A DNA stretch of 64,000 bases, from NCBI GenBank assembly GCA_964601305.1, contig CAZRMW010000003.1, positions 3,116-67,115 of the forward strand, written 5' to 3'. A program made the translations under genes and the position numbers. This DNA comes from an uncultured Candidatus Saccharibacteria bacterium. GTDB lineage: Bacteria; Patescibacteriota; Minisyncoccia; JAHISW01; Tagabacteraceae. The notes under the pieces were generated by a model. That model worked only from the letters and a program-made list of their open reading frames with translations. It was not told the origin of the DNA and ran no database searches. Below, one piece after another: positions 3,375-53,195 of the stretch; position 1 is the first letter of the stretch; every line of letters begins with the position of its first letter.

Positions 3375-3782
3375 ATGAACCAACAAAAAATCAACAAACA
3401 AATTCTGGAGCGACTTGAAAAAATTGAATTACTTATTTTTAAATCGAAGAAAAAAAATAATACAAAACACAAAGATTTTACTGACCTAACAAAGATTAAT
3501 TTTGATTTAAATACTAGAGCCTTTTTTAAAAGATATGGTAAAAATTTAACTGGTCCCAAAAATTTTACTTTAATTGTGGCTTTTTTATGCGAAGGACAAG
3601 TTGGGAAAAGTATCTTGGCAGAAGATATTATAAATTGTTGGAATAAGAACTTTGTTTTTTTGGGAGGTAAAAAACTTACCTCAGGAACTTTTGGGACACG
3701 TGCAAAAGAAAAAGAGTGGATAGATTCTAAGAAATACAGATTTTACGAACTTACATCAAAATGGCAAGAAATATTTAGTTAA
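3375..3782 (+). CDS. hypothetical protein (paralogous domain family, second member)
   Basis: ORF of 135 aa. It carries the shared hydrophobic IV.FL..G ... GKK ... G ... Y pattern seen in its neighbours. Confidence 0.45.
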   Translation: MNQQKINKQILERLEKIELLIFKSKKKNNTKHKDFTDLTKINFDLNTRAFFKRYGKNLTGPKNFTLIVAFLCEGQVGKSILAEDIINCWNKNFVFLGGKKLTSGTFGTRAKEKEWIDSKKYRFYELTSKWQEIFS

Positions 3783-3785
3783 AAA

Positions 3786-4499
3786 ATGAAGTTGCCTCAA
3801 AATATAACAGGCTTTCTTAAACAGCTTCCCCTTAAGAAAATGAAAGGGGAAGAAGTTTTTGTTGCAATAGTTTTTTTCTTAGCAAATGGTAAAAAAAATA
3901 AAGAAATTGAAACTAAAAATGTAAAATCTAAGTGGAGTAAAACACTAATAGGGAAGAAATATAATCCTGCGTTTTCAAATCGTGCCCAAGGGAATTTAAA
4001 CCCTTGTAGTAAAGGTCAAATGTGCTTAACCAGTGAAGGTTTTGATTATATCGAATCTTTGTTTCAATCCGTGTCGTTGTTTAGCACAGGGCTTAAGGTT
4101 TTCACAAAAGGTAGTTCGCATTCGTTTGACAAATTTATTCGTAGTGTTTTTAAAAAAGCAACAAAAAATATTGATGTAGCAGATACATACGTGTCTGGGG
4201 CTATTTTTGATAACCTCTTAGACGAGGCGTCAAAAGATGTACCTATTCGGTTTCTTTACGGTAATGATGTAGGTGGATTTATTTCGAAGTCTAAGCGATT
4301 TGCTAGAGAATATAGTTTTAACGCAAAGCAAAGTAGTATATTTCACGATCGTTTTATTGTAGTTGATGACAAAGGGTACATTATGGGTCCATCACTCAAA
4401 GATGCAGCAGATAAAAAACCGGCTACGCTAGTTGTCTTAGGTAGTGTTGACTCTAAGAAATTAATCAATCTCTTTTTGGGATTATGGGGTAGTAAATAA
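3786..4499 (+). CDS. hypothetical protein with N-terminal paralogous domain and C-terminal degenerate PLD-like (HxK-type) motif
   Basis: ORF of 237 aa. The C-terminal FHDRFIVVDDKGYIMGPS matches the phospholipase-D/nuclease HxK(x)4D(x)6G-S spacing, with R in place of K and the S shifted by one. Confidence 0.45.
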   Translation: MKLPQNITGFLKQLPLKKMKGEEVFVAIVFFLANGKKNKEIETKNVKSKWSKTLIGKKYNPAFSNRAQGNLNPCSKGQMCLTSEGFDYIESLFQSVSLFSTGLKVFTKGSSHSFDKFIRSVFKKATKNIDVADTYVSGAIFDNLLDEASKDVPIRFLYGNDVGGFISKSKRFAREYSFNAKQSSIFHDRFIVVDDKGYIMGPSLKDAADKKPATLVVLGSVDSKKLINLFLGLWGSK

Positions 4500-5816: not shown

Positions 5817-5850
5817 ACACATATTGATTATATCTTGGCCAAATAATTGC

Positions 5851-5902
5851 TCTATTGTAGTCATTTCAGCCCTGATTTGACTACAATAGGGTGTTTTTTG
5901 CT
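5851..5902 (+). terminator. intrinsic terminator (CTCTATTGTAGTCA...TGACTACAATAGG followed by a T-run)
   Basis: A 13-bp stem is followed by GTGTTTTTTGCTGTTTTG. Confidence 0.5.
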
Positions 5903-5928
5903 GTTTTGTGCGGGAAATAACATTCTAA

Positions 5929-5962
5929 TATTCTTAAGAATATTAGAATGTTATTATAAGGT
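5929..5962. repeat. perfect 34-bp palindrome AACATTCTAATATTCTTAAGAATATTAGAATGTT (copy 2, same core ATATTCTTAAGAATAT)
   Basis: It was read directly from the sequence. It lies 840 bp from copy 1, and the two bracket tspO plus the small ORF. Confidence 0.5.
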
Positions 5963-6091
5963 AAAAAGCTGTTGATTTAGCAATTGCGGGTAGGTAAAAT
6001 AAATTTATGTCCGAAAAGAAGATAGAAAAAAATATGAAACCGACTGTTTTTGAGAAAATATTAGAGTTTGCATGAAAACTAAAAAACAAAA

Positions 6092-6481
6092 ATGACATCG
6101 GATTTTATTAAAAAACAGATAAGGTTATACAAAACATTTGATAGTTGTTTTTGTTTTGCTTTACAAGAGAATGTTTATTTTAATGCCGATGGCTTAAACC
6201 ACATCCTGTATTATAGAAGAAGGCCACGAAAACATTCGGAAAAACATTATAGAGCGAGTTTAATAAAACACATAAAAGAAGTTATTGAAAATTCAAAAAC
6301 AGCGGTTAAAGAAATAAAATCTGATAATCCTCTTGTTGTAACTTGGAGCTTAGAGTATAAAATAGTAGATAAGAAGGACAATTTTAAATGTATTGTAAAA
6401 GTTGTTTTAAAAAAGAAAGGAGATGGCAAAATTTATTTTTTGAGTGTAATGAGCAACAAAACAAAAAAACCCAAAACCTAG
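6092..6481 (+). CDS. hypothetical protein
   Basis: ORF of 129 aa that is basic at the C-terminus. I recognise no family. Confidence 0.4.
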   Translation: MTSDFIKKQIRLYKTFDSCFCFALQENVYFNADGLNHILYYRRRPRKHSEKHYRASLIKHIKEVIENSKTAVKEIKSDNPLVVTWSLEYKIVDKKDNFKCIVKVVLKKKGDGKIYFLSVMSNKTKKPKT

Positions 6482-6495
6482 GTTTGGATTGTTTT

Positions 6496-6557
6496 GTGTG
6501 TTCATTGCTAGCTTAAGAATTCTTTAGCTAGGGAGGGGCTTTCGCCCATGAACACAC
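6496..6557. repeat. nested inverted-repeat structure (outer GTGTGTTCAT/ATGAACACAC; inner CTAGCTTAAGAATTCTTTAGCTAG; GGGGCTTTCGCCC)
   Basis: It was read directly from the sequence. It lies between the 6092 ORF and the DUF2779 gene, and no T-run follows it. Confidence 0.4.
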
Positions 6558-8584: not shown

Positions 8585-9136
8585 ATGTTGATATATATTG
8601 CTCTTATTATTGTGGTTGCTGGTTTTTCTTTGATGTTTCTGTTGTTTGTTTTGGAGCTTGGCAAAAGATTGAGAAAGTTGGAAAAAGAGCAAGAAGAAAA
8701 TATTTTAGAACTTTGTATAGCGCCGGTAAATAAAAAAGTTGAAGAAATAAAATTTTTAAGAAGGATGACCTCCGGAGCCGTTGGCTACGATATAATAGCA
8801 AACGAAAGAGTGATTGTCCCTGTGGGGCAGTCAAAAACCATAAAAACAGGTTTTGCTACTGCTTTTACTGAAGGCTTTGAAGCAGCTATCAGAGGAAGAA
8901 GTGGGCTCGAAGCAAGATTTCACATGCTTAAACTTGGAGGAACAATAGACCCAGACTATAGGGGCGAATGGATAATTACACTTCTTAATTTGGGTTTAAA
9001 GCTTTATGAAATAAAAAAAGGAGACAGGGTTGCGCAAGTTGTTTTTCGCAAAGTTTATTTTCCAAAAATGAAAATAGTGAATAAATTACCAGACACAAAA
9101 AGAGCAGGAGGCGGATTTGGAAGCACAGGGAAATAA
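8585..9136 (+). CDS. dut: dUTP diphosphatase (dUTPase); the true start may be the internal ATG at 8765, preceded by an AAGGA SD
   Basis: dUTPase motifs are present: AVGYDI, GTIDPDYRGE and RAGGGFGSTGK. The first 60 aa of the long ORF are hydrophobic and coiled-coil and may be an extension or an artefact. Confidence 0.8.
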   Translation: MLIYIALIIVVAGFSLMFLLFVLELGKRLRKLEKEQEENILELCIAPVNKKVEEIKFLRRMTSGAVGYDIIANERVIVPVGQSKTIKTGFATAFTEGFEAAIRGRSGLEARFHMLKLGGTIDPDYRGEWIITLLNLGLKLYEIKKGDRVAQVVFRKVYFPKMKIVNKLPDTKRAGGGFGSTGK

Positions 9137-23382: not shown

Positions 23383-23780
23383 CCCCTCACCTTTGCAAAG
23401 TTTTTATTCATAAAAAATACTATCAAAGGTGAGGGGTCAAGAGGTGAAATTTGAGAGCAAATTGGGAAATAAAAGTGGAACCTATTTAACGCGATAGCAG
23501 TGGATAGGTTCCATTGACAGAATTTTAAAGAAATGTTATCCATAAAACTATGGAAAATTTAATTATGAAATATAGAACAAATATTACCAAAGGTCTTAAT
23601 GGCTGGGATATTTCTGTGTGCGGAAATATGCATTTCGTGCCAGAAAATCAATATATTGGGCAAAACAGGTTAGAAACTTGAGTTAACAAACAAACTAAGT
23701 ATTTAAGGTGTCTTGCTCAACAGAGTAAGGCATTTTTAGATTTTAAGGTCTAAAAAAGTTCTTTAACAATAAAATAAATA

Positions 23781-23826
23781 AACCCTATCTGAGGGAGATC
23801 GGATCTCCCTCAGATACAAAAGGAGG
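23781..23826 (+). promoter_or_regulatory. repeat cassette copy 1: AAACCCTATCTGAGGGAGATCGGATCTCCCTCAGATAcAAAAGGAGG (31-bp perfect palindrome plus SD) directly upstream of the MFS transporter gene
   Basis: The identical 45-nt sequence recurs at 25034-25080, with one mismatch just before the SD. Confidence 0.55.
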
Positions 23827-25015: not shown

Positions 25016-25033
25016 ACCCAAACTTAACTCAAA

Positions 25034-25080
25034 AAACCCTATCTGAGGGAGATCGGATCTCCCTCAGATATAAAAGGAGG
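25034..25080 (+). promoter_or_regulatory. repeat cassette copy 2 (palindrome TATCTGAGGGAGATCGGATCTCCCTCAGATA plus AAAAGGAGG SD) directly upstream of the GNAT gene
   Basis: It is an exact repeat of the 23781-23826 element. Confidence 0.55.
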
Positions 25081-34333: not shown

Positions 34334-34804
34334 CTAGCGCTTGCTCCATTGTGCAGCTTTTCTTGCTTTCTTTAGTCCAAACTTTCTTCTTTCTTTCGCT
34401 CTAGGGTCTCTTGTTAGGAAACCTTCCGGTTTTAATATTAGCCTAAATTCTGGATTGAATTTAAGGAGTGCCCTGCTTATCCCCAATCTTATTGCTCCAG
34501 CTTGCGAACTAATTCCGCCTCCCTTTACTTTTACGCTTATAAAAAAGTTTTTTAAAACTTCAACTTTTTTAAGAGGGGCTTTTACTGTATCTCGAAGCTC
34601 TTTAATTGGTAGATAAGTTAACATTGCTTTGTCGTTTATTAAAACATCTCCTTTTTTGCCTTCAGTGGGTTTCTCAAAAAGCCTCACTCTTGCAACAGAG
34701 CTTTTTCTCCTTCCCACAGCTTCAAAGTACTTTCCGCCAGCTGGCGAATTTTTCTTCTTTCTTGCCCCGCTCGGCGGGGTTGTTTTTTCTTTTTTTTCTG
34801 GCAT
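34334..34804 (-). CDS. rpsI: 30S ribosomal protein S9 with a ~25-aa N-terminal extension containing an in-frame GC-rich palindromic element
   Basis: GRRKSSVARV ... the C-terminal AAQWSKR is the S9 signature. The extension [18 protein letters not shown] is encoded by the GC-rich hairpin GCCCCGCTCGGCGGGGT at 34763-34779. Confidence 0.85.
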   Translation of the reverse strand: MPEKKEKTTPPSGARKKKNSPAGGKYFEAVGRRKSSVARVRLFEKPTEGKKGDVLINDKAMLTYLPIKELRDTVKAPLKKVEVLKNFFISVKVKGGGISSQAGAIRLGISRALLKFNPEFRLILKPEGFLTRDPRAKERRKFGLKKARKAAQWSKR

Positions 34805-37728: not shown

Positions 37729-38112
37729 TTATTTTTTATCAGCCTTTCTTCTTCCGCTAGTCATCGTCCTACGACCCTTGTAAGATCTATTTGTTCTAGA
37801 ATTTGTCTTTGTTCTTTGACCTCGTACTGGTAGCTGTCTAGAATGCCTACCTCCTCTGTAGGTTTTTATATCTTTTAATCTCTTTATATTACCCAAAACA
37901 TCTCTTCTTAAATCTGCCTCTATTCTTTCTTTTTCTACCAAAAGTCTGATTTTGTTTTCTTCTTCTGAAGTAAGATCTTTTACTTTTTTGTCAAAAGGAA
38001 CTTTTACTTCTGTAAGAATTTTTTGCGCGCTAACTTTGCCTATTCCATAAAAATAAGTAAGAGCAATCTCTAATCTTTTGTTTTCTGGTATGTTTACTCC
38101 TGATATTCGCAT
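37729..38112 (-). CDS. rpsM: 30S ribosomal protein S13
   Basis: The N-terminus [25 protein letters not shown] and a basic C-terminus are present. Confidence 0.9.
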
Positions 38113-38299
38113 GTGTTTAAAATTAACGAGCGAAGCGAGTATAATTTTTTACACCCCGCCCTTTTATATCTTTTCTTGGTTTTTAATTATTACTATTTTT
38201 AATACTCATATTCTTTATTTGCAATACCTCGCTTCTGTGTATAAGGGCGGGGTAAAGGTTTGCCTACGAAATTTTTTACAAAATTTCGGGCAATTCGCT
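38113..38299 (+). repeat. ~187-bp repeat element copy 1 filling the rpmJ-rpsM intergenic gap (internal long-range inverted repeat CACCCCGCCC...GGGCGGGGT; promoter-like TTTAAA-N18-TATAAT; 3-prime hairpin GCCTACGAAATTTT..AAAATTTCGGGC)
   Basis: It aligns end-to-end at about 75-80% identity with 41668-41858. It begins at the nucleotide after the rpsM start codon. Confidence 0.6.
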
Positions 38300-38416
38300 T
38301 TACTTCTGTCTTTGTTTGTGTTTAGGATTTTTTCGGCAAATAACCACAACTCGACCCCTGCGTCGCGTCATTTTGCAATCCTTACAAATTTTTTTAACTG
38401 ATACTCTAACTTTCAT
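38300..38416 (-). CDS. rpmJ: 50S ribosomal protein L36
   Basis: The reverse-complement ORF encodes [38 protein letters not shown], which is 38 aa. It is not in the ORF track because it is shorter than 60 aa. Confidence 0.85.
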
Positions 38417-40413: not shown

Positions 40414-41667
40414 TTAGTTAACTATTTCTTCAATTCTTATTTTAGATTCTTTTTCTGGAAAAAATCTCCACCATGATGGACTAAACACAATAGAAGCATG
40501 GTCTATAGCCGGATAATTTTTAAATACTTCTTCTAGTCTTTCTGGCGAAGCTATAAGAGCTTCTTTTAGCTTAGCTTCGTCTAGTATCCAAACAAAATTT
40601 GCATTACCACTAAGCTTGAAAACCATACTCTGTTTTTCTTTGTCTAGGCTTATCAAATCAAAATCTAATTTTTCTAAATTATTTATTTTTACTTTTCCTA
40701 ACATATCTTCGCCTAAATATTTTCCTACTAAAATTTTAGACAAAATATTTTCTGGAATGAGAACGGCATAAAGTGTACCAGTTTCTTTTATTTTAAATTC
40801 TGGGTTTGTAGAAATTAAGTCTGTGCTATTTTGAGCTTCGTTTTCAGAAAAAGTAATTTGAATAGCGCCACTATAAAGTAAAAATCCTTCGGGTTTTTTC
40901 TCTACAGCCTTTTCAAGAAGCGCTGTTCTTATGGATGCTTCTAGAGAATTTTTTAAATTATTAAAATCACTGTCGCTAACTACTGGTACTTCCCCACTAA
41001 AACCTCCTGCCATAGTGGTTTTACTTCTAGCATAAAATTTTTCATAGCGAGGCCCGCCCTTAAATCCAGGAATAGTAAAATCAGTAAGCTCTTTGTTATA
41101 TTCTTCTCCTGGTTTGTCTGCATATACTACTGCTTCTATCGAGCTCGGTTGCACCTCTCCATCGATTATTTTTGCCCCAGGAACTATTATTGATTTTTTG
41201 ATACGATAAATTTTTCCATCTGGGGCTTCAAATCTTGTGGTAGCAATAAGTTTTTGAGACTTTGAGCTAAAACTATTATAAACAACGATTGTACCACTTG
41301 CTTTGGTGGCAATATTTTTTACACCAGTGGCTTGTGTGGAATTTTCTTTGGTAACTTTTATTTCCATTGTTTCAAATGGCACATCAAAAAACGCTGTTTT
41401 ACCAGACTTTACAAGAGTATCTATACTAACAACTTCCTGATGAAGAGTAATTTGAATAATGGCTTTAGCAAAAAATCCTACTGTTTTTGCAGATAAAACA
41501 ACAACAAGAAACAAAACAACTAGACCAAAAATTATCTTTCCTTTTTTCATTTTTTTAAACAAATCATTGTCACGATTCTTTCTTACTCTTTTTATCGGCT
41601 CATCGAAAAAGTCTCTTTTTTTCTTTCCTTTTTTTATTATAATATCTTCTATTTTTGGTTTAGGCAT
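40414..41667 (-). CDS. hypothetical membrane-anchored protein (basic N-terminus, single TM, large extracytoplasmic domain)
   Basis: The protein is 417 aa. An N-terminal Lys-rich segment precedes a TM helix. I recognise no family. Confidence 0.5.
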   Translation of the reverse strand: MPKPKIEDIIIKKGKKKRDFFDEPIKRVRKNRDNDLFKKMKKGKIIFGLVVLFLVVVLSAKTVGFFAKAIIQITLHQEVVSIDTLVKSGKTAFFDVPFETMEIKVTKENSTQATGVKNIATKASGTIVVYNSFSSKSQKLIATTRFEAPDGKIYRIKKSIIVPGAKIIDGEVQPSSIEAVVYADKPGEEYNKELTDFTIPGFKGGPRYEKFYARSKTTMAGGFSGEVPVVSDSDFNNLKNSLEASIRTALLEKAVEKKPEGFLLYSGAIQITFSENEAQNSTDLISTNPEFKIKETGTLYAVLIPENILSKILVGKYLGEDMLGKVKINNLEKLDFDLISLDKEKQSMVFKLSGNANFVWILDEAKLKEALIASPERLEEVFKNYPAIDHASIVFSPSWWRFFPEKESKIRIEEIVN

Positions 41668-41858
41668 GCTTGAAAATTAATGAACGAAGTGAATATAATT
41701 TTTTGCACCCCGCCCTCTTAATATTTTTTCTTAATTGTTAATCTTTATTATTTTTATACCTATTTTTTAATTACAAATCCCTGCTCTTGTGTGTGAGGGC
41801 GGGGTAAAGGTTTGCCTACGAAATTTTAAATAAAATTTCGGGCAATTCTTCTTTATTT
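41668..41858 (+). repeat. ~190-bp repeat element copy 2 (TTGAAA-N18-TATAAT promoter-like box, CACCCCGCCC...GGGCGGGGT inverted repeat, 3-prime hairpin plus U-rich tail), beginning right after the start codon of the 40414-41667 gene
   Basis: It is a paralogue of 38113-38299 with the same orientation, antisense to the flanking minus-strand genes. Confidence 0.6.
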
Positions 41859-41860
41859 TA

Positions 41861-43060
41861 TCATTTTAAATACTTGTTTGCAAAAAGCGCAGAAAGCAAA
41901 AGTGAAAAATCAGATTCACTCAATCCTTTACTTTTATTATCGAAATATCCTCCCAAGGAATAAGGAGACAACAATTTTATAGCAAAATGTTTTTTAAAAA
42001 TTGTTAAATTTGCAAAATCTGGACTTTCAATTCTTTTTTCTAGTTTTTTAAGCAATGTTGGCATCTTTTTTTCACTAAACATTGGCGAGGAAAGTTCGCA
42101 TAAAAAAAGATTTTGAGGTAAAAATCTATCTTTAGCTATCTCTATCAAAAGACCTCCTAAAGATTTTTGCCACTCATCTAAGGCTTTGCTAACAACTAGG
42201 TCTACCTTCTTAAAAACATCATCTTTCAAGTCCTTTCGCTGATATTTTAAAAACAAAGACCTTGCGTCCACCAAGCTTTTTCCAAAAGTTTTAGCGATAC
42301 TGTCTATAAAAAAATTCTCTCCTTTCGGAAATGAATTAACTTCTTCTATGATTCCATTTCTCATTATAAAAATATCTGTAATTTCTCCACTGATATCTAC
42401 AACCACAGCTCCCTCTTTCATGTTTGCAACTCCACTTAGGATTTTAAAAACAACAAATGGAAAACTGTGAAAAAAAACACTACCCTCGTGTATCTGAGGT
42501 AAAGCCTGTTCTTTAATTTTTTCTTTCAGAGATCCTTGCGACAAACTAAAATATGAAAACATTTCTAGACTGCCGACTTCTTTGTTTAAAAAATTATTTA
42601 CTTCGTATCCATTTAGATTTGCTTTTAAAGGTGTTTTTTCTATAAAGACGTCTTCTTCTTTTTCTTTTTCGTGGGGGATTTTACTTCCCCATTCAAGCCC
42701 AAAACGATGTGCTTCGTCATCTATAAGTTCTTCCATAAAACTTTCGTTTATTTTAAAATTTTTCTCTCGAATAGTTTTTGTTATTCTAGTTTGCGCAATA
42801 TACCAAGGTGCAGAAAAAACACACATAGCCATATCTATATTTTTGTTAGGAGAACTTTTTTCTAAAAAACTAAAAAGAGAAACGATGCTTCTTTCTACAA
42901 AAGGCCATGATGCAGAAAAATTCTTTTCTTTTGGAAAACTTATTTGCTCTCTTTTACTAGATAAAATTGTTGGCTTTCCTTTTGTTTGTTTTTGTAACAA
43001 AAGTGCGCCAATAGACGAGCTGGCAATATCAAAAATAGCAATAGTTTTATCTTTACTCAT
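41861..43060 (-). CDS. hypothetical protein, possibly actin-like ATPase fold (PilM/FtsA-like)
   Basis: The N-terminus IAIFDIASSSIGALLL resembles the phosphate-1 motif of PilM/FtsA. The assignment is weak. Confidence 0.35.
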   Translation of the reverse strand: MSKDKTIAIFDIASSSIGALLLQKQTKGKPTILSSKREQISFPKEKNFSASWPFVERSIVSLFSFLEKSSPNKNIDMAMCVFSAPWYIAQTRITKTIREKNFKINESFMEELIDDEAHRFGLEWGSKIPHEKEKEEDVFIEKTPLKANLNGYEVNNFLNKEVGSLEMFSYFSLSQGSLKEKIKEQALPQIHEGSVFFHSFPFVVFKILSGVANMKEGAVVVDISGEITDIFIMRNGIIEEVNSFPKGENFFIDSIAKTFGKSLVDARSLFLKYQRKDLKDDVFKKVDLVVSKALDEWQKSLGGLLIEIAKDRFLPQNLFLCELSSPMFSEKKMPTLLKKLEKRIESPDFANLTIFKKHFAIKLLSPYSLGGYFDNKSKGLSESDFSLLLSALFANKYLK

Positions 43061-50686: not shown

Positions 50687-53195
50687 TCAGATACCCTTTT
50701 AAATATTCCCCTGTGTGGGAATTTTTATTTTGGGCAACTTCTTCTGGTGTACCTTTTGCCACAAGTTTACCACCTTTATCTCCCCCATCTGGCCCCAAGT
50801 CTATTATATAATCCGCTACTTTTACAATGTGCATGTTGTGCTCAATTACTACTACCGTGTTTCCTTTTTCTACTATTTTTTGTAACACATCTAAAAGCAT
50901 TTTTATATCGTCGTAGTGCAAGCCAGTAGACGGCTCGTCCAGCAGATAAACAGCATTTCTTACAAATGGCTTGCTAAGCTCTTTGGCAAGTTTTATTCTC
51001 TGTGCCTCTCCACCACTAAGCGTAGTTGCTGGTTGGCCAAGCTTTATGTATCCAAGCCCTACATCTTTTAGCACTTTCAGCTTGTCTGAAATGGTATAAA
51101 TATCTTTAAAAAATTCATATGCTTCTTCCACTGTCATTTTTAAAACATCTGAAATATTTTTGTCTCTGTGTTTTACTTCTAAAGTTTCTCTATTAAATCT
51201 TTTTCCTTGACACACATCGCACCCCACAGACACCGCCGGCAAAAAATGCATCTCTACCAAATTAAATCCCACACCATCGCATGCTTCGCATCTTCCGCCT
51301 GGTTTGTTGAATGAAAATCTCCCTGCTCTGTACCCTCTTTCACGTGCGTCTTCAAGCTCCGCGAAAAACTCACGAATAGGTGTCCAAATACCTGTATAAG
51401 TAGCCGGGTTGGAGCGTGGACTTCTACCAATTGGTGATTGGTTTATTTCTATAACTCTACTTAAATATTCTAATCCCAAAATTTTTCCTACATTTTTAAA
51501 GCCAACATCCCTTCTTTTATAGTTTACATTCGCTAAATTTTTATGAAGTACCTCATAAAGCAAGCTACTCTTGCCACTCCCAGACACACCCGTAAGACAC
51601 ACCAATTTTTTTAGTGGTATATCTATATTTACATTTTTTAAATTATTTACTTTAGCGCCAATTATTTGCACTTTTTCGTGTATCTTTTTACGCCTTTCTG
51701 GAAGATCTATTTTTTGCTTGCCTACCAAATAATCTATGGTTGAAGATTTTTTATTTTTTAAGGCTTTACTAATCTCCTCGTTTACTACCACCTCGCCCCC
51801 ATGCCTTCCAGGGCCAGGGCCAAGATCTACCAAATGGTCGGACTCCATAATAGTTCTCTCGTCGTGCTCTACCACTATTACAGTGTTTCCAGCTTTTTTT
51901 AATTCTTTAAGAGTTTTTATTAGTCTTTTGTTGTCGCGCTCGTGTAAGCCTATTGTTGGCTCATCTAAAACATAGAGCGTTCCTGCGAGCTTGGAGCCGA
52001 TTTGGGACGCGAGGCGTATTCTTTGCGCTTCGCCACCGCTAAGCGTAGATGCTTTTCTGTCGAGTGTCATATACTCTAGGCCTACTTCTAAAAGAAACCC
52101 TAACCGAGAAATAATTTCTCTGAGAGGTTCTTTGGCAACGCTATTTTCTTTTTTATTTAGCTTGCTTTCTAAATTTATAAAAAATTCATAAGCCTCTGTG
52201 ATATTTTTAGAAATTATATCGTGAATATTTTTGTTAGAGATTTTTACAGAAAGCGCTTCTTCTTTTAGCCTTTTACCTTTACATGCTGGACACTTTTCTT
52301 TTGTAAAAAAATCTTGCATACCTAAACCCGAACATGCCTCGCACGCTCCATGTGGACTATTGAAAGAAAATAGCCGTGGCTCAATTTCTGGAAAAGCAAA
52401 TTCGTCTTTAGGGCAATTCCATTTTGAAGAATATAATTTTTCTTCGCTTAAAAATTTTGCTACCACTAATCCCTTGCTATAATTGAGTGCGTCTTCTACT
52501 GCTTCCGTAAGCCTAGAAATATCTTTAGGTTGGACTTTATCTATTAAAATTTCTATGTCGTGCTTTTTGTTTTTGGTTAGATTTATCTGATCGTGAAGAG
52601 AATGCTTTTTGCCATCTACCCTTGCTTCTTCATACCCTTTGTCTAAAAAATCATAAAGAAGCTGATAATACTCCCCTTTTCTACCTCTAACTACTGGAGA
52701 AAATATCGACACAAAACCTGCTTTCTCTTTGTTGGCTCGTTTTATTATAGAGTCTACAATTTCTTGCGCGCTCATTTTTTTTATTTTGCCTCCACATTTT
52801 GGACAATAAACAACCCCGATTCTTGCATAAAGCACACGCAAATAATCATAAATTTCTGTAAGAGTAGCCACTATAGAACGCGGGTTTCTTCCATGCGCTT
52901 TTTGATTTATAGCAATTGCTGGAGAAAGGCCTTCAATGTCGTCTACATCTGGCCTATCGGATTGACCCAAAAACTGTCTTGCGTATGGCGACAAAGATTC
53001 TATATATCTTCTTTGTCCTTCCACAAAAATAGTATCGAAAGCAAGAGAGGACTTTCCGCTTCCAGACACACCAGTAAATACTATCAGCTTATCTTTTGGA
53101 ATCTCTAAGCTGATGTCTTTCAAATTGTGCACTCTAGCACCTTTTATTTTTATTTTTCTTGCCCCGCTCGGCGGGGTTTTATTTTCCTTTTTCAT
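50682..53195 (-). CDS. uvrA: excinuclease ABC subunit A
   Basis: Two ABC ATPase modules ([17 protein letters not shown]) and Cys4 zinc fingers are present. The N-terminus [14 protein letters not shown] is encoded by the same GC-rich 24-mer as in rpsI. Confidence 0.9.

Follow-up and report, generated by a model that had tools for sequence, protein, structure and literature searches.

What kind of sequence fills two gaps between genes, each from end to end, within a few kilobases of the same genome? The question is raised by a 64,000-nt stretch of DNA from an uncultured Candidatus Saccharibacteria bacterium (contig CAZRMW010000003.1), here called the window; loci fetched from public genomes for comparison are given L-numbers (L001 etc.). 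Two copies of a repeat, at 38113-38302 (copy 1) and 41668-41855 (copy 2), are ~80% identical overall, and each occupies the entire gap between two minus-strand genes. Because the flanking genes are both on the minus strand, the copies are to be read on that strand. With moderate confidence, we favor the reading that this element is a mobile, modular palindromic repeat of the kind represented by repetitive extragenic palindromes (REPs), bacterial interspersed mosaic elements (BIMEs) and miniature inverted-repeat transposable elements (MITEs), i.e. a DNA hairpin that would be carried passively in operon transcripts. It looks like selfish mobile DNA and not like a promoter or a small-RNA gene.

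A dispersed repeat family

An alignment (MAFFT) of positions 38100-38320 with 41655-41880 has a mean column identity of 87% over 230 columns, flanks included, and ungapped blocks of copy 1 and copy 2 are 71-77% identical. The 20-mer GGGCGGGGTAAAGGTTTGCC, common to both copies, occurs exactly twice in the window and in none of 100 shuffled versions; the spaced pattern CCCCGCCC-N70-100-GGGCGGGG likewise has exactly two occurrences, with none in shuffles. These results bear out the two co-oriented copies reported in an initial annotation of the locus, and a scan of all 64 kb with nhmmer profiles found no third. The same annotation had each copy filling the gap as far as the start codon of a minus-strand gene. 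This holds on both counts (Table 1), but the extent it gave has to be revised on the other side, where the element also reaches the upstream gene: the first TAA of copy 1 is itself the stop codon of rpmJ, and the left end of copy 2 (41855) lies 5 nt from the TGA stop (41861-41863) of a 399-aa open reading frame (ORF).

The two copies belong to a much wider family in bacteria of the Candidate Phyla Radiation (CPR). A scan with the pattern CCTTTACCCCGCCC-N70-100-GGGCGGGG, covering one public genome per species, returned 48 stretches, 7 of which are chance matches in GC-rich genomes. It yielded 37 composite copies with the three-hairpin plan described below, in 36 loci from 25 metagenome-assembled genome (MAG) assemblies, far beyond the two copies initially recognized. 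The MAGs are deposited as Paceibacterota, Sung-, Wolfe-, Portnoy-, Taga- and Wildermuthbacteria, 'Patescibacteria group' and, in many cases, 'Ca. Saccharibacteria'. Family members range from 190 to 240 bp, and several MAGs have at least 3-4 exact-pattern copies each. Searches with nhmmer added further divergent copies with a compensated clamp ACCCAGCCC/GGGCTGGGT (L006:2889-3096, L026:4108) and two copies in which the middle hairpin, P2, is lost (L032:782-879, L037:4168-4244). A metagenome scan with GCAAACCTTTACCCCGCCC for copies from the window's own lineage returned five true family members, all from other lineages, plus chance matches. Four of the five lie at contig ends (contigs L060, L062, L063 and L068 stop inside the element), as expected if assemblies break at the repeat.

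Rfam scans of the window, of a window copy and of a canonical copy gave only sub-threshold matches to generic miRNA hairpins, and collections of viral contigs, phages and plasmids held no match to the element. Nor did searches of the literature on intergenic, palindromic and MITE-like repeats or structured RNAs of CPR bacteria and Parcubacteria turn up a description, and the repeat family is apparently undescribed so far.

Insertion into operon junctions

Gene order around the window copies is kept in relatives (alaS, two unknown ORFs, infA, rpmJ, rpsM, rpsK, rpsD, rpoA, rplQ and onward). In L053/L054 (S13 identity 72%) the rpmJ>rpsM junction reads TAA-TTTT-ATG, and the junction between the homologs of the 399-aa and 417-aa ORFs that flank copy 2 has a 21-nt spacer. 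The two junctions read TAA-AACAAC-ATG and TAA-CC-ATG in L055/L056 (S13 identity 67%). In L052 (S13 identity 78%) the second reads TAA-A-ATG and the first is filled by an unrelated repeat of ~150 nt. Because relatives have empty sites at the same junctions, the element is inserted DNA. The rpmJ-rpsM spacer of relatives is not an ordinary conserved untranslated region (UTR), as it measures 4-6 nt in L053/L054 and L055/L056. Thus, the proposal of a MITE-like mobile cassette in the initial annotation gains support: the repeat is dispersed and multi-copy, and close relatives lack it at these junctions.

Elsewhere in the family, where upstream genes were assigned from ORF ends and downstream genes confirmed by Pfam, the element is found in various genomes at the ribosomal junctions L23>L2, S17>L14, L18>S5 and S11>S4, at secE>nusG and pheS>pheT, and before L33 (twice), S16, S18, ssb, recA, gyrA, ftsH, mreB, smc, fpg, mraZ and parA. 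These junctions are non-orthologous, the positions within housekeeping operons differing from genome to genome. The mean identity of P2 interiors is 0.73 within genomes vs 0.60 between genomes, those of L017 and L041 being identical; on this comparison of sequences the copies are homogenized within genomes. Small, non-coding, multi-copy and polymorphic for presence and absence, the element is in these respects like a MITE.

Other repeats occupy comparable places. In L052, the closest relative, the ~150-nt repeat is rich in TTCGAA palindromes and fills rpmJ>rpsM, rpsM>rpsK and rpoA>rplQ (5843-6000, 6385-6539 and 8665-8815); hence the filling of ribosomal-operon junctions by 'filler' repeats is not confined to one family. 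The rpoA>rplQ spacer of L055 (8500-8665) is filled by a motif CTAACGGGATGAA and an inverted repeat TCCCGTTAGTGAT..ATCACTAACGGGA, ending at the rplQ start codon. The same CTAACGGGATGAA motif stands in for P2 in the P2-less copy L032:782-879, which suggests module shuffling. Start codons are miscalled around the rpmJ>rpsM junction: gene calls give several S13 homologs, P0004, P0006 and P0007 among them, a length of 142-144 aa rather than 127 aa, and in L054, where the site is empty, the calls of L36 and S13 are extended too far and overlap each other. The element is not the cause of these miscalls.

Three abutting hairpins with codon-precise ends

On the gene strand each window copy consists of three hairpins, P1, P2 and P3, set directly end to end. 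In the family consensus, P1 is formed by T(A/G)A-AGG.GC.TTTGTC, a variable hairpin and ACAAA.A.CCTTTA. P2, directly abutting P1 and P3, consists of CCCCGCCC, a covarying stem with a variable AT-rich interior, and GGGCGGGG, its clamp ACCCCGCCC/GGGCGGGGT being invariant. P3 reads TGC(T)CAATGTTGT(AG)CTAAATTTAT, a loop with TTCGCT boxes, and ATAAATTTAG.ACAACATTG.GCA-TG; its arms, CAATGTTGTAGCTAAATTTAT and ATAAATTTAGACAACATTG, are 10-35 nt apart and carry conserved T and AG bulges, and canonical copies end ...GGC(A) at the start codon. In the window, the stem of P2 has ~12 bp and that of P3, a weak AU hairpin, 7 bp; the P2 interiors of copies 1 and 2 share 76% identity and have the same orientation. 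To judge from these sequences, the window copies are a shortened, lineage-specific variant of the family.

The long-range inverted repeat noted in the initial annotation, which corresponds to P2, and its CGAAATTTT..AAAATTTCG hairpin, which is the core of P1, are both real and fold better than shuffles. Folding of both window copies beats shuffles on either strand (z -3.4 to -4.3), the plus strand folding slightly better than the minus strand (-46.7 vs -43.3 and -45.2 vs -39.2 kcal/mol).

Covariation was scored against 500 shuffles in each of three helix sets: P2 (20 pairs, 37 copies), P3 (22 pairs, 19 in-register copies), and P1 together with the base of P2 (33 pairs, 17 copies). P2 has 85.8% of its cells paired and 128 double-change cells, vs 57.7 in shuffles. 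For canonical P3 the values are 96.2% and 60 vs 18.1, with compensatory changes at 11 of 22 pairs. P1 with the P2 base reaches 95.2% and 60 vs 16.6, P1 alone being 93.7% paired with compensatory changes at 10 of 21 pairs. In none of the three sets did any of the 500 shuffles attain the observed score. Almost all changes in the helices are two-sided, one-sided ones being nearly absent; the 9-bp core of P2 is invariant in 36 of the 37 aligned copies and the next pairs covary. Long variants contain segments (seg1, seg2 and seg3) with a three-way covariation that permits an alternative hairpin, and a junction core and asymmetric bulges are conserved across deep lineages.

If the structure of a sense RNA were under selection, G·U pairs should be tolerated and A·C pairs should not. 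The counts of G·U to A·C are 7:6 in P1, 3:2 in the P2 base, 33:23 in the 20-bp P2 stem and 2:7 in P3; sense and antisense folding are unbiased for P1 and P2, and P3 folds better antisense in 28 of 37 copies. This symmetry points to Watson-Crick complementarity kept on the DNA, and the complementarity of the helices thus seems to be maintained at the DNA level and not as sense-strand RNA. A switch in which the 3' arm of P1 would invade P3 was considered and rejected, the P1 variants ACAAAA>AGAAAA and GCCAAA being compensated in P1 and not in P3.

The ends of the element coincide with codons. The triplet T(A/G)A forms the left junction of 32 of the 38 copies, and in 21 of the 38 it terminates, in frame, an upstream ORF 40 or more codons long. 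The TAA is kept even where a tRNA gene lies upstream (L015, L031), and therefore belongs to the element. At the other end, at least 30 of the 38 copies have the start codon of a genuine ORF 0-5 nt beyond the P3 base. Most often the sequence is ..GGC-ATG, and some copies have ..GGCAT-ATG; four end ..ATT-ATG-GCA, with the ATG inside the helix and the partner arm compensated. The right junction retains a spacer of 0-6 nt. The last 5-6 nt before the ATG differ between the window copies (AAACAC vs CAAGC) and are probably leftover spacer, since they vary between copies and resemble the spacers of empty sites.

Table 1. Features of the two window copies and their flanking genes (window coordinates)
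Feature	Position	Strand	Description
Copy 1, whole element	38113..38302	-	from TAA (38300-38302, rpmJ stop codon) to last base before rpsM ATG (38110-38112)
Copy 1 P1	38253..38302	-	TAAAG.CGAA.TTGCC-CGAAATTTT-GTAA-AAAATTTCG-TA-GGCAA.A.CCTTTA; stop codon within its base; from folds and family covariation
Copy 1 P2	38153..38253	-	ACCCCGCCC(TTA)...(TAA)GGGCGGGGT clamp closing an AT-rich interior of ~75 nt
Copy 1 P3 segment	38113..38152	-	weak hairpin AAAATTA (38142-38148) / TAATTTT (38119-38125), loop CTCGCTTCGCTCG, then AAACAC
Copy 2, whole element	41668..41855	-	from TAAAG (41851-41855) to last base before ATG (41665-41667) of the 417-aa ORF
Copy 2 P1	41805..41855	-	from folds, family alignment and covariation
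Copy 2 P2	41707..41805	-	ACCCCGCCCTC...GAGGGCGGGGT
Copy 2 P3 segment	41668..41706	-	AAAATTA...TAATTTT, then CAAGC; plus strand carries TTGAAA-N18-TATAAT
rpsM (S13)	37729..38112	-	downstream of copy 1; first gene of the rpsM-rpsK-rpsD-rpoA-rplQ block
rpmJ (L36)	38300..38416	-	upstream of copy 1; PF00444 found in syntenic loci
417-aa ORF	40414..41667	-	downstream of copy 2; weak GlxA beta-barrel match
399-aa ORF	41861..43060	-	upstream of copy 2; no Pfam match

P2 as an independent module

Relative to P1 and P3, the interior of P2 may point either way, even inside one MAG. The interiors of L031 and L032 are 0.90 identical when one is flipped and 0.71 when not, and those of L016 and L045 0.85 and 0.54, respectively. 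Which way an interior points can be told from a stem mismatch, T·T or A·A (11 and 5 of the type-I copies, respectively).

The module also occurs by itself. Two 16S rRNA genes (L044:434-539, L051:5935-6040) carry a ~100-nt P2 module of the form CCCCGCCC-TCTATGC...GCTTAGA-GGGCGGGG between GATAGT and TAAAGG, where helix 9 would be, with oppositely oriented interiors (positions from Rfam small-subunit rRNA matches). In both genes P2 is a complementary-ended hairpin in a variable rRNA helix, as is characteristic of rRNA intervening sequences (IVS). Short, ORF-less, uncharacterized insertions have been reported in CPR rRNA genes, some of them suspected to be IVS of the RNase III type (PMC11270868), and the 16S modules of L044 and L051 belong among these insertions. 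GC-capped palindromes of the P2 type further lie in frame inside an IspE/GHMP-kinase ORF (L042:2297-2394) and inside a 491-aa ORF (L018:7466-7567), both flanked by TAAA..TAAA direct repeats, and in L008 a P2-like palindrome stands alone in a spacer in the opposite orientation. CCTTTA as a target site of P2 was discarded, as the search pattern itself demanded this hexamer.

A proposed mobile palindrome carried in operon transcripts

The proposal that best accommodates these observations is that the element would be handled as folded single-stranded DNA, in the manner of REP/BIME/REPIN or IS200/IS605-derived repeats, and would be inserted, probably, immediately 3' of a TAA. In compact AT-rich genomes the viable TAAs would mostly be stop codons lying 0-6 nt before the next ATG. 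Insertion at such sites would account for the exact left junction, for the leftover spacer of 0-6 nt on the right and for part of the co-orientation with genes. Once inserted, the element would be a passive passenger of operon mRNA, tolerated since it folds only upon itself and disrupts neither the stop nor the start codon.

Several observations weigh against this proposal. All composite copies are co-oriented with the flanking genes, whereas inverted copies of a palindrome that is purely selfish should survive as well. Roughly one copy in four precedes a ribosomal-protein gene, which suggests targeting or benefit, and the conserved junction core, the asymmetric bulges and the three-way covariation look like functional constraint. 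Around the composite there is no target-site duplication (the TAA...ATG flanks hold no direct repeat). The copy number is modest, at 2 per 64 kb and at least 4 per MAG, and the sampled copies are biased by a search pattern that required CCTTTA. With respect to a mobilizing enzyme, tblastn with a Y1_Tnp transposase of a Tagabacteria relative (L056) found no Y1 gene in the window or in any element-bearing locus, partial genomes only being covered. The CCCCGCCC element is absent from the Y1 loci L056 and L074-L076, the hairpins of which differ in sequence, and no CCCCGCCC...GGGCGGGG pair 200-4000 bp apart, as in an autonomous version, was found in the fetched loci. The co-orientation, the enrichment at ribosomal genes, the junction core with its bulges and the alternative seg1/seg2 hairpin are left unexplained by passive mobility, and these keep an RNA role alive.

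A RAYT-like transposase of the Y1 (HUH) class is at present a candidate only for mobilizing the element. In L056 a 228-aa Y1_Tnp (PF01797) gene (3420-4106) adjoins the syntenic region and has on either side a hairpin ATTTACGTCTTGCGGTTACGTAAAT that recurs inverted after rpsI (L055/L056). Homologs of this gene number more than 3,600; among the top 120, identity ranges from 60 to 100% (mostly 60-68%) and length from 221 to 259 aa, and the named ones among these 120 come from Parcubacteria-type MAGs. In L074, L075 and L076 (10001-~10705) a single Y1_Tnp gene likewise sits among housekeeping genes, and each of the three has a short flanking hairpin of its own. The arrangement at all four loci, a single gene flanked by hairpins, resembles that of RAYTs, the REP-associated tyrosine transposases, with their REPs (PMC3733652, PMC3337134).

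Comparison with known repeats

REP, BIME and REPIN repeats are mobilized by RAYT (Y1 HUH) transposases (PMC3733652, PMC3337134, PMC3479197). The element shares with them non-coding palindromic units, alternating orientation and a mosaic build: its four related arms (P1-5', P1-3', P3-5' and P3-3') alternate in orientation, and a hidden Markov model of left flanks matches right flanks on the opposite strand. As with REPs and BIMEs, it lies between unidirectional ORFs directly after coding regions, is probably co-transcribed and has some units within genes. Within-genome homogenization and the existence of hairpin-flanked RAYT-like genes in its clade extend the likeness. A possible counterpart of the unpaired GTAG (or CGTC) tag of REPs is the (G/A)T(A/G)G, with AG/GG unpaired, that immediately precedes the inner palindrome of P3, CTAAATTTAT..ATAAATTTAG, in canonical copies; the loops, however, measure 10-35 nt, and the window copies have TATAC/TATAT in place of the GTAG tag. 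The differences are that its units are longer, with large loops and a fixed P1-P2-P3 order with a GC clamp; that its ends are codon-precise, its copies strictly gene-co-oriented and no cognate RAYT linked; and that the copy number seen is far below the more than 100 per genome typical of REPs.

Correia elements of Neisseria, the enterobacterial repetitive intergenic consensus (ERIC) and the Rickettsia palindromic elements (RPEs) are bacterial MITE-like repeats found in transcribed spacers or genes. The element resembles them as a 100-250-bp palindromic non-coding repeat with presence/absence polymorphism and probable operon co-transcription, and the RPEs in particular through in-frame copies inside ORFs (L042 IspE) and in RNA genes. 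It differs in being conserved over many order-level lineages and not within one genus. It departs from MITEs as a composite without target-site duplication, the ends of which share only a partial inverted repeat of 13-14 nt, TTTGTCnAAA(A)TTT (P2 alone has perfect GC-rich inverted ends of 9-13 bp), and in that its internal helices covary over their full length, which a DDE transposase would not require.

IS200/IS605-type elements insert 3' of a fixed tetranucleotide. A comparable exact left junction set by a short fixed sequence (here T(A/G)A), the lack of a duplication and an apparently strand-specific insertion recall these elements, and the sub-terminal imperfect hairpins with extrahelical bases recall the IS200/IS605-derived palindrome-associated transposable elements (PATEs). 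Unlike them, the element has no associated TnpA or TnpB, its cleavage and guide sequences are only putative, and the P2 clamp module is without a counterpart. The P2 modules of L044 and L051 are like rRNA insertions in being sporadic, ~100-nt hairpins with complementary ends in a variable helix, but differ in that P2 is mostly found in mRNA spacers within a larger cassette. Finally, in the leader shunt of the cauliflower mosaic virus 35S RNA, the bypass in gene 60 of phage T4 and the hairpin-bridged Shine-Dalgarno (SD) sequence of T4 gene 38, a stable structure has a stop codon at its 5' foot and, at its 3' foot, a start codon or landing site. This is resemblance only: the stop of the element is inside the helix and not before it, and no RNA-level selection is seen.

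Alternative explanations

A functional intercistronic RNA device is the strongest alternative, possible but considerably less probable than mobility, with which it could coexist. P2 would serve as a processing or stabilizing hairpin of the RNase III type, and/or the apposition of the UAA (5' base of P1) and the AUG (3' base of P3) would let a terminating ribosome re-initiate, as a shunt-like kind of translational coupling. Strict gene co-orientation and codon-precise ends are consistent with such a device, as are helices that abut without linkers and so bring the 5' and 3' ends next to each other, the conserved junction core and bulges, and the alternative pairing of seg1, seg2 and seg3. The same applies to the enrichment before highly expressed genes (including those for S13, S5, L14, L2, S16, S18, L33 and S4) and to the P2 hairpin in 16S rRNA, given that short CPR rRNA insertions are suspected of being RNase III-cleaved IVS (PMC11270868). 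An SD-like motif precedes 15 of 60 long ORFs of the window, A/T-rich sequence preceding most starts, and internal cistrons may therefore rely on coupling; with 45 of the 60 lacking the motif, its absence before rpsM was rejected as a special trait. What counts against the device is the want of any preference for G·U over A·C and of a sense folding advantage, the element being missing at the same junctions in close relatives, and a P2 interior tolerated either way round. As substrates of RNase III or of a clamp, moreover, the window P2 and P3 are poor, any ribosome that occupies the stop codon must melt the foot of P1, and the switch pairing of P1-3' with P3-5' shows no covariation (AGAAAA is compensated in P1 only). 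A more specific version, to which we give little credence, is a portable 'stop-to-start' device, in which ~200 nt would be looped out so that the UAA at the foot of P1 meets the AUG at the foot of P3, with SD-free re-initiation.

The initial annotation offered a mobile promoter or 5'-UTR cassette driving the flanking genes, which we regard as improbable. The hexamers on which it was based do exist on the plus strand, as TTTAAA-N18-TATAAT in copy 1 (10/12) and TTGAAA-N18-TATAAT in copy 2 (11/12), and are conserved between both window copies, and the element always lies right before a start codon. The promoter and leader of the E. coli alpha operon, moreover, sit at the position corresponding to copy 1. 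However, the flanking genes are encoded on the other strand, so that the hexamers point away from rpsM and the 417-aa gene, and match quality is at the chance level of AT-rich DNA: promoter-like sites in 37.5-42.5 kb number 19 vs 17.1±4.3 expected, and over the whole window there are 33 matches of at least 10/12 vs 49.9±7.0 in shuffles and 7 of at least 11/12 vs 4.4±2.0. TATAAT overlaps one arm of P3, and TTTAAA or TTGAAA adjoins and overlaps the other; in the family, where these arms are spaced 10-35 nt apart, the hexamers are absent from the consensus. Neither the sense strand nor the oriented P2 interiors contain a conserved TTGACA-N16-18-TAnnnT, though canonical promoters exist in the clade. 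Models of a sense-strand promoter (leaderless, or with P3-loop TTCGCT...AAAT) were rejected for a spacing inconsistent among long, medium and short variants, and a promoter inside P2 was rejected too, the oriented type-I interiors showing only a weak TTTAT..CTTGYAAA with 12-13-nt spacing, which is not sigma-70 geometry. The alpha-operon leader itself, Alpha_RBS (RF00140), scores only 10.2 bits vs a gathering score of 38 (E=5.2), and a ribosomal-protein leader in general was set aside because copy 2 and most family members precede non-ribosomal genes. Perfect 12/12 TTGACA-N16-TATAAT sites do occur in the window at 2868 (+), 8149 (+) and 23382 (-), all outside the element.

A family of ~170-nt antisense small RNAs on the plus strand, starting just before P2 and ending past P1, is very unlikely. 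The order on that strand (promoter-like hexamers, two stable hairpins, T-rich sequence) and its slightly better folding in both window copies would suit such RNAs. The T-rich tail, described in the initial annotation as a terminator, lies outside the repeat and differs between the copies, being antisense to the Lys-rich end of rpmJ in copy 1 or else unrelated spacer, and neither site was flagged by a terminator scan. The hexamers are absent from canonical members, the ends of the element are tied to sense-strand codons, no strand-specific RNA signature is seen and Rfam offers no match. Least probable of all is an inverton, in which the P2 arms would be recombination sites flipping the interior as an on/off switch: both orientations do occur, even in one genome, but the interior is only ~60-80 nt long with no conserved promoter or other motif when oriented, only different loci differ in orientation (the window organism, in its three independent assemblies L001-L003, shows one and the same), and the downstream genes are essential and inside operons.

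Other repeats of the window

Two further pairs of hairpins were seen in the window. A 55-nt hairpin CCCTATCTGAGGGAGATCGGATCTCCCTCAGATA-AAAAGGAGG at 23772-23826 and 25026-25080 is 93% identical between its two copies, each directly upstream of an SD motif before one of two neighboring plus-strand genes. Near-identical terminator-like hairpins, CTTGCCCCGCTCGGCGGGGTT followed by a T-run, lie at 34750-34795 and 53147-53192. GC skew was found uninformative as a guide to the direction of replication, as it merely tracks gene orientation.

Implications

The genomes of CPR bacteria, or Patescibacteria, are regarded as streamlined and repeat-poor, yet a structured repeat of ~200 bp has colonized the tightest spacers of essential operons in many of their lineages, and with codon-level precision. 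It breaks assemblies, lengthens apparently 'intergenic' regions and complicates gene calling nearby. By linking an mRNA-spacer repeat to the ORF-less insertions of CPR rRNA genes, it suggests that the latter may have originated from a mobile hairpin module with a GC clamp. Whether HUH enzymes target stop codons could be asked with this element and the RAYT-like Y1 genes that are widespread in Parcubacteria. Were an RNA role to hold, the element would represent a new way to keep translational coupling across an insertion; and the stop-to-start device, if true, would be a bacterial analog of ribosome shunting, able to spread through coupled operons without breaking their translational coupling.

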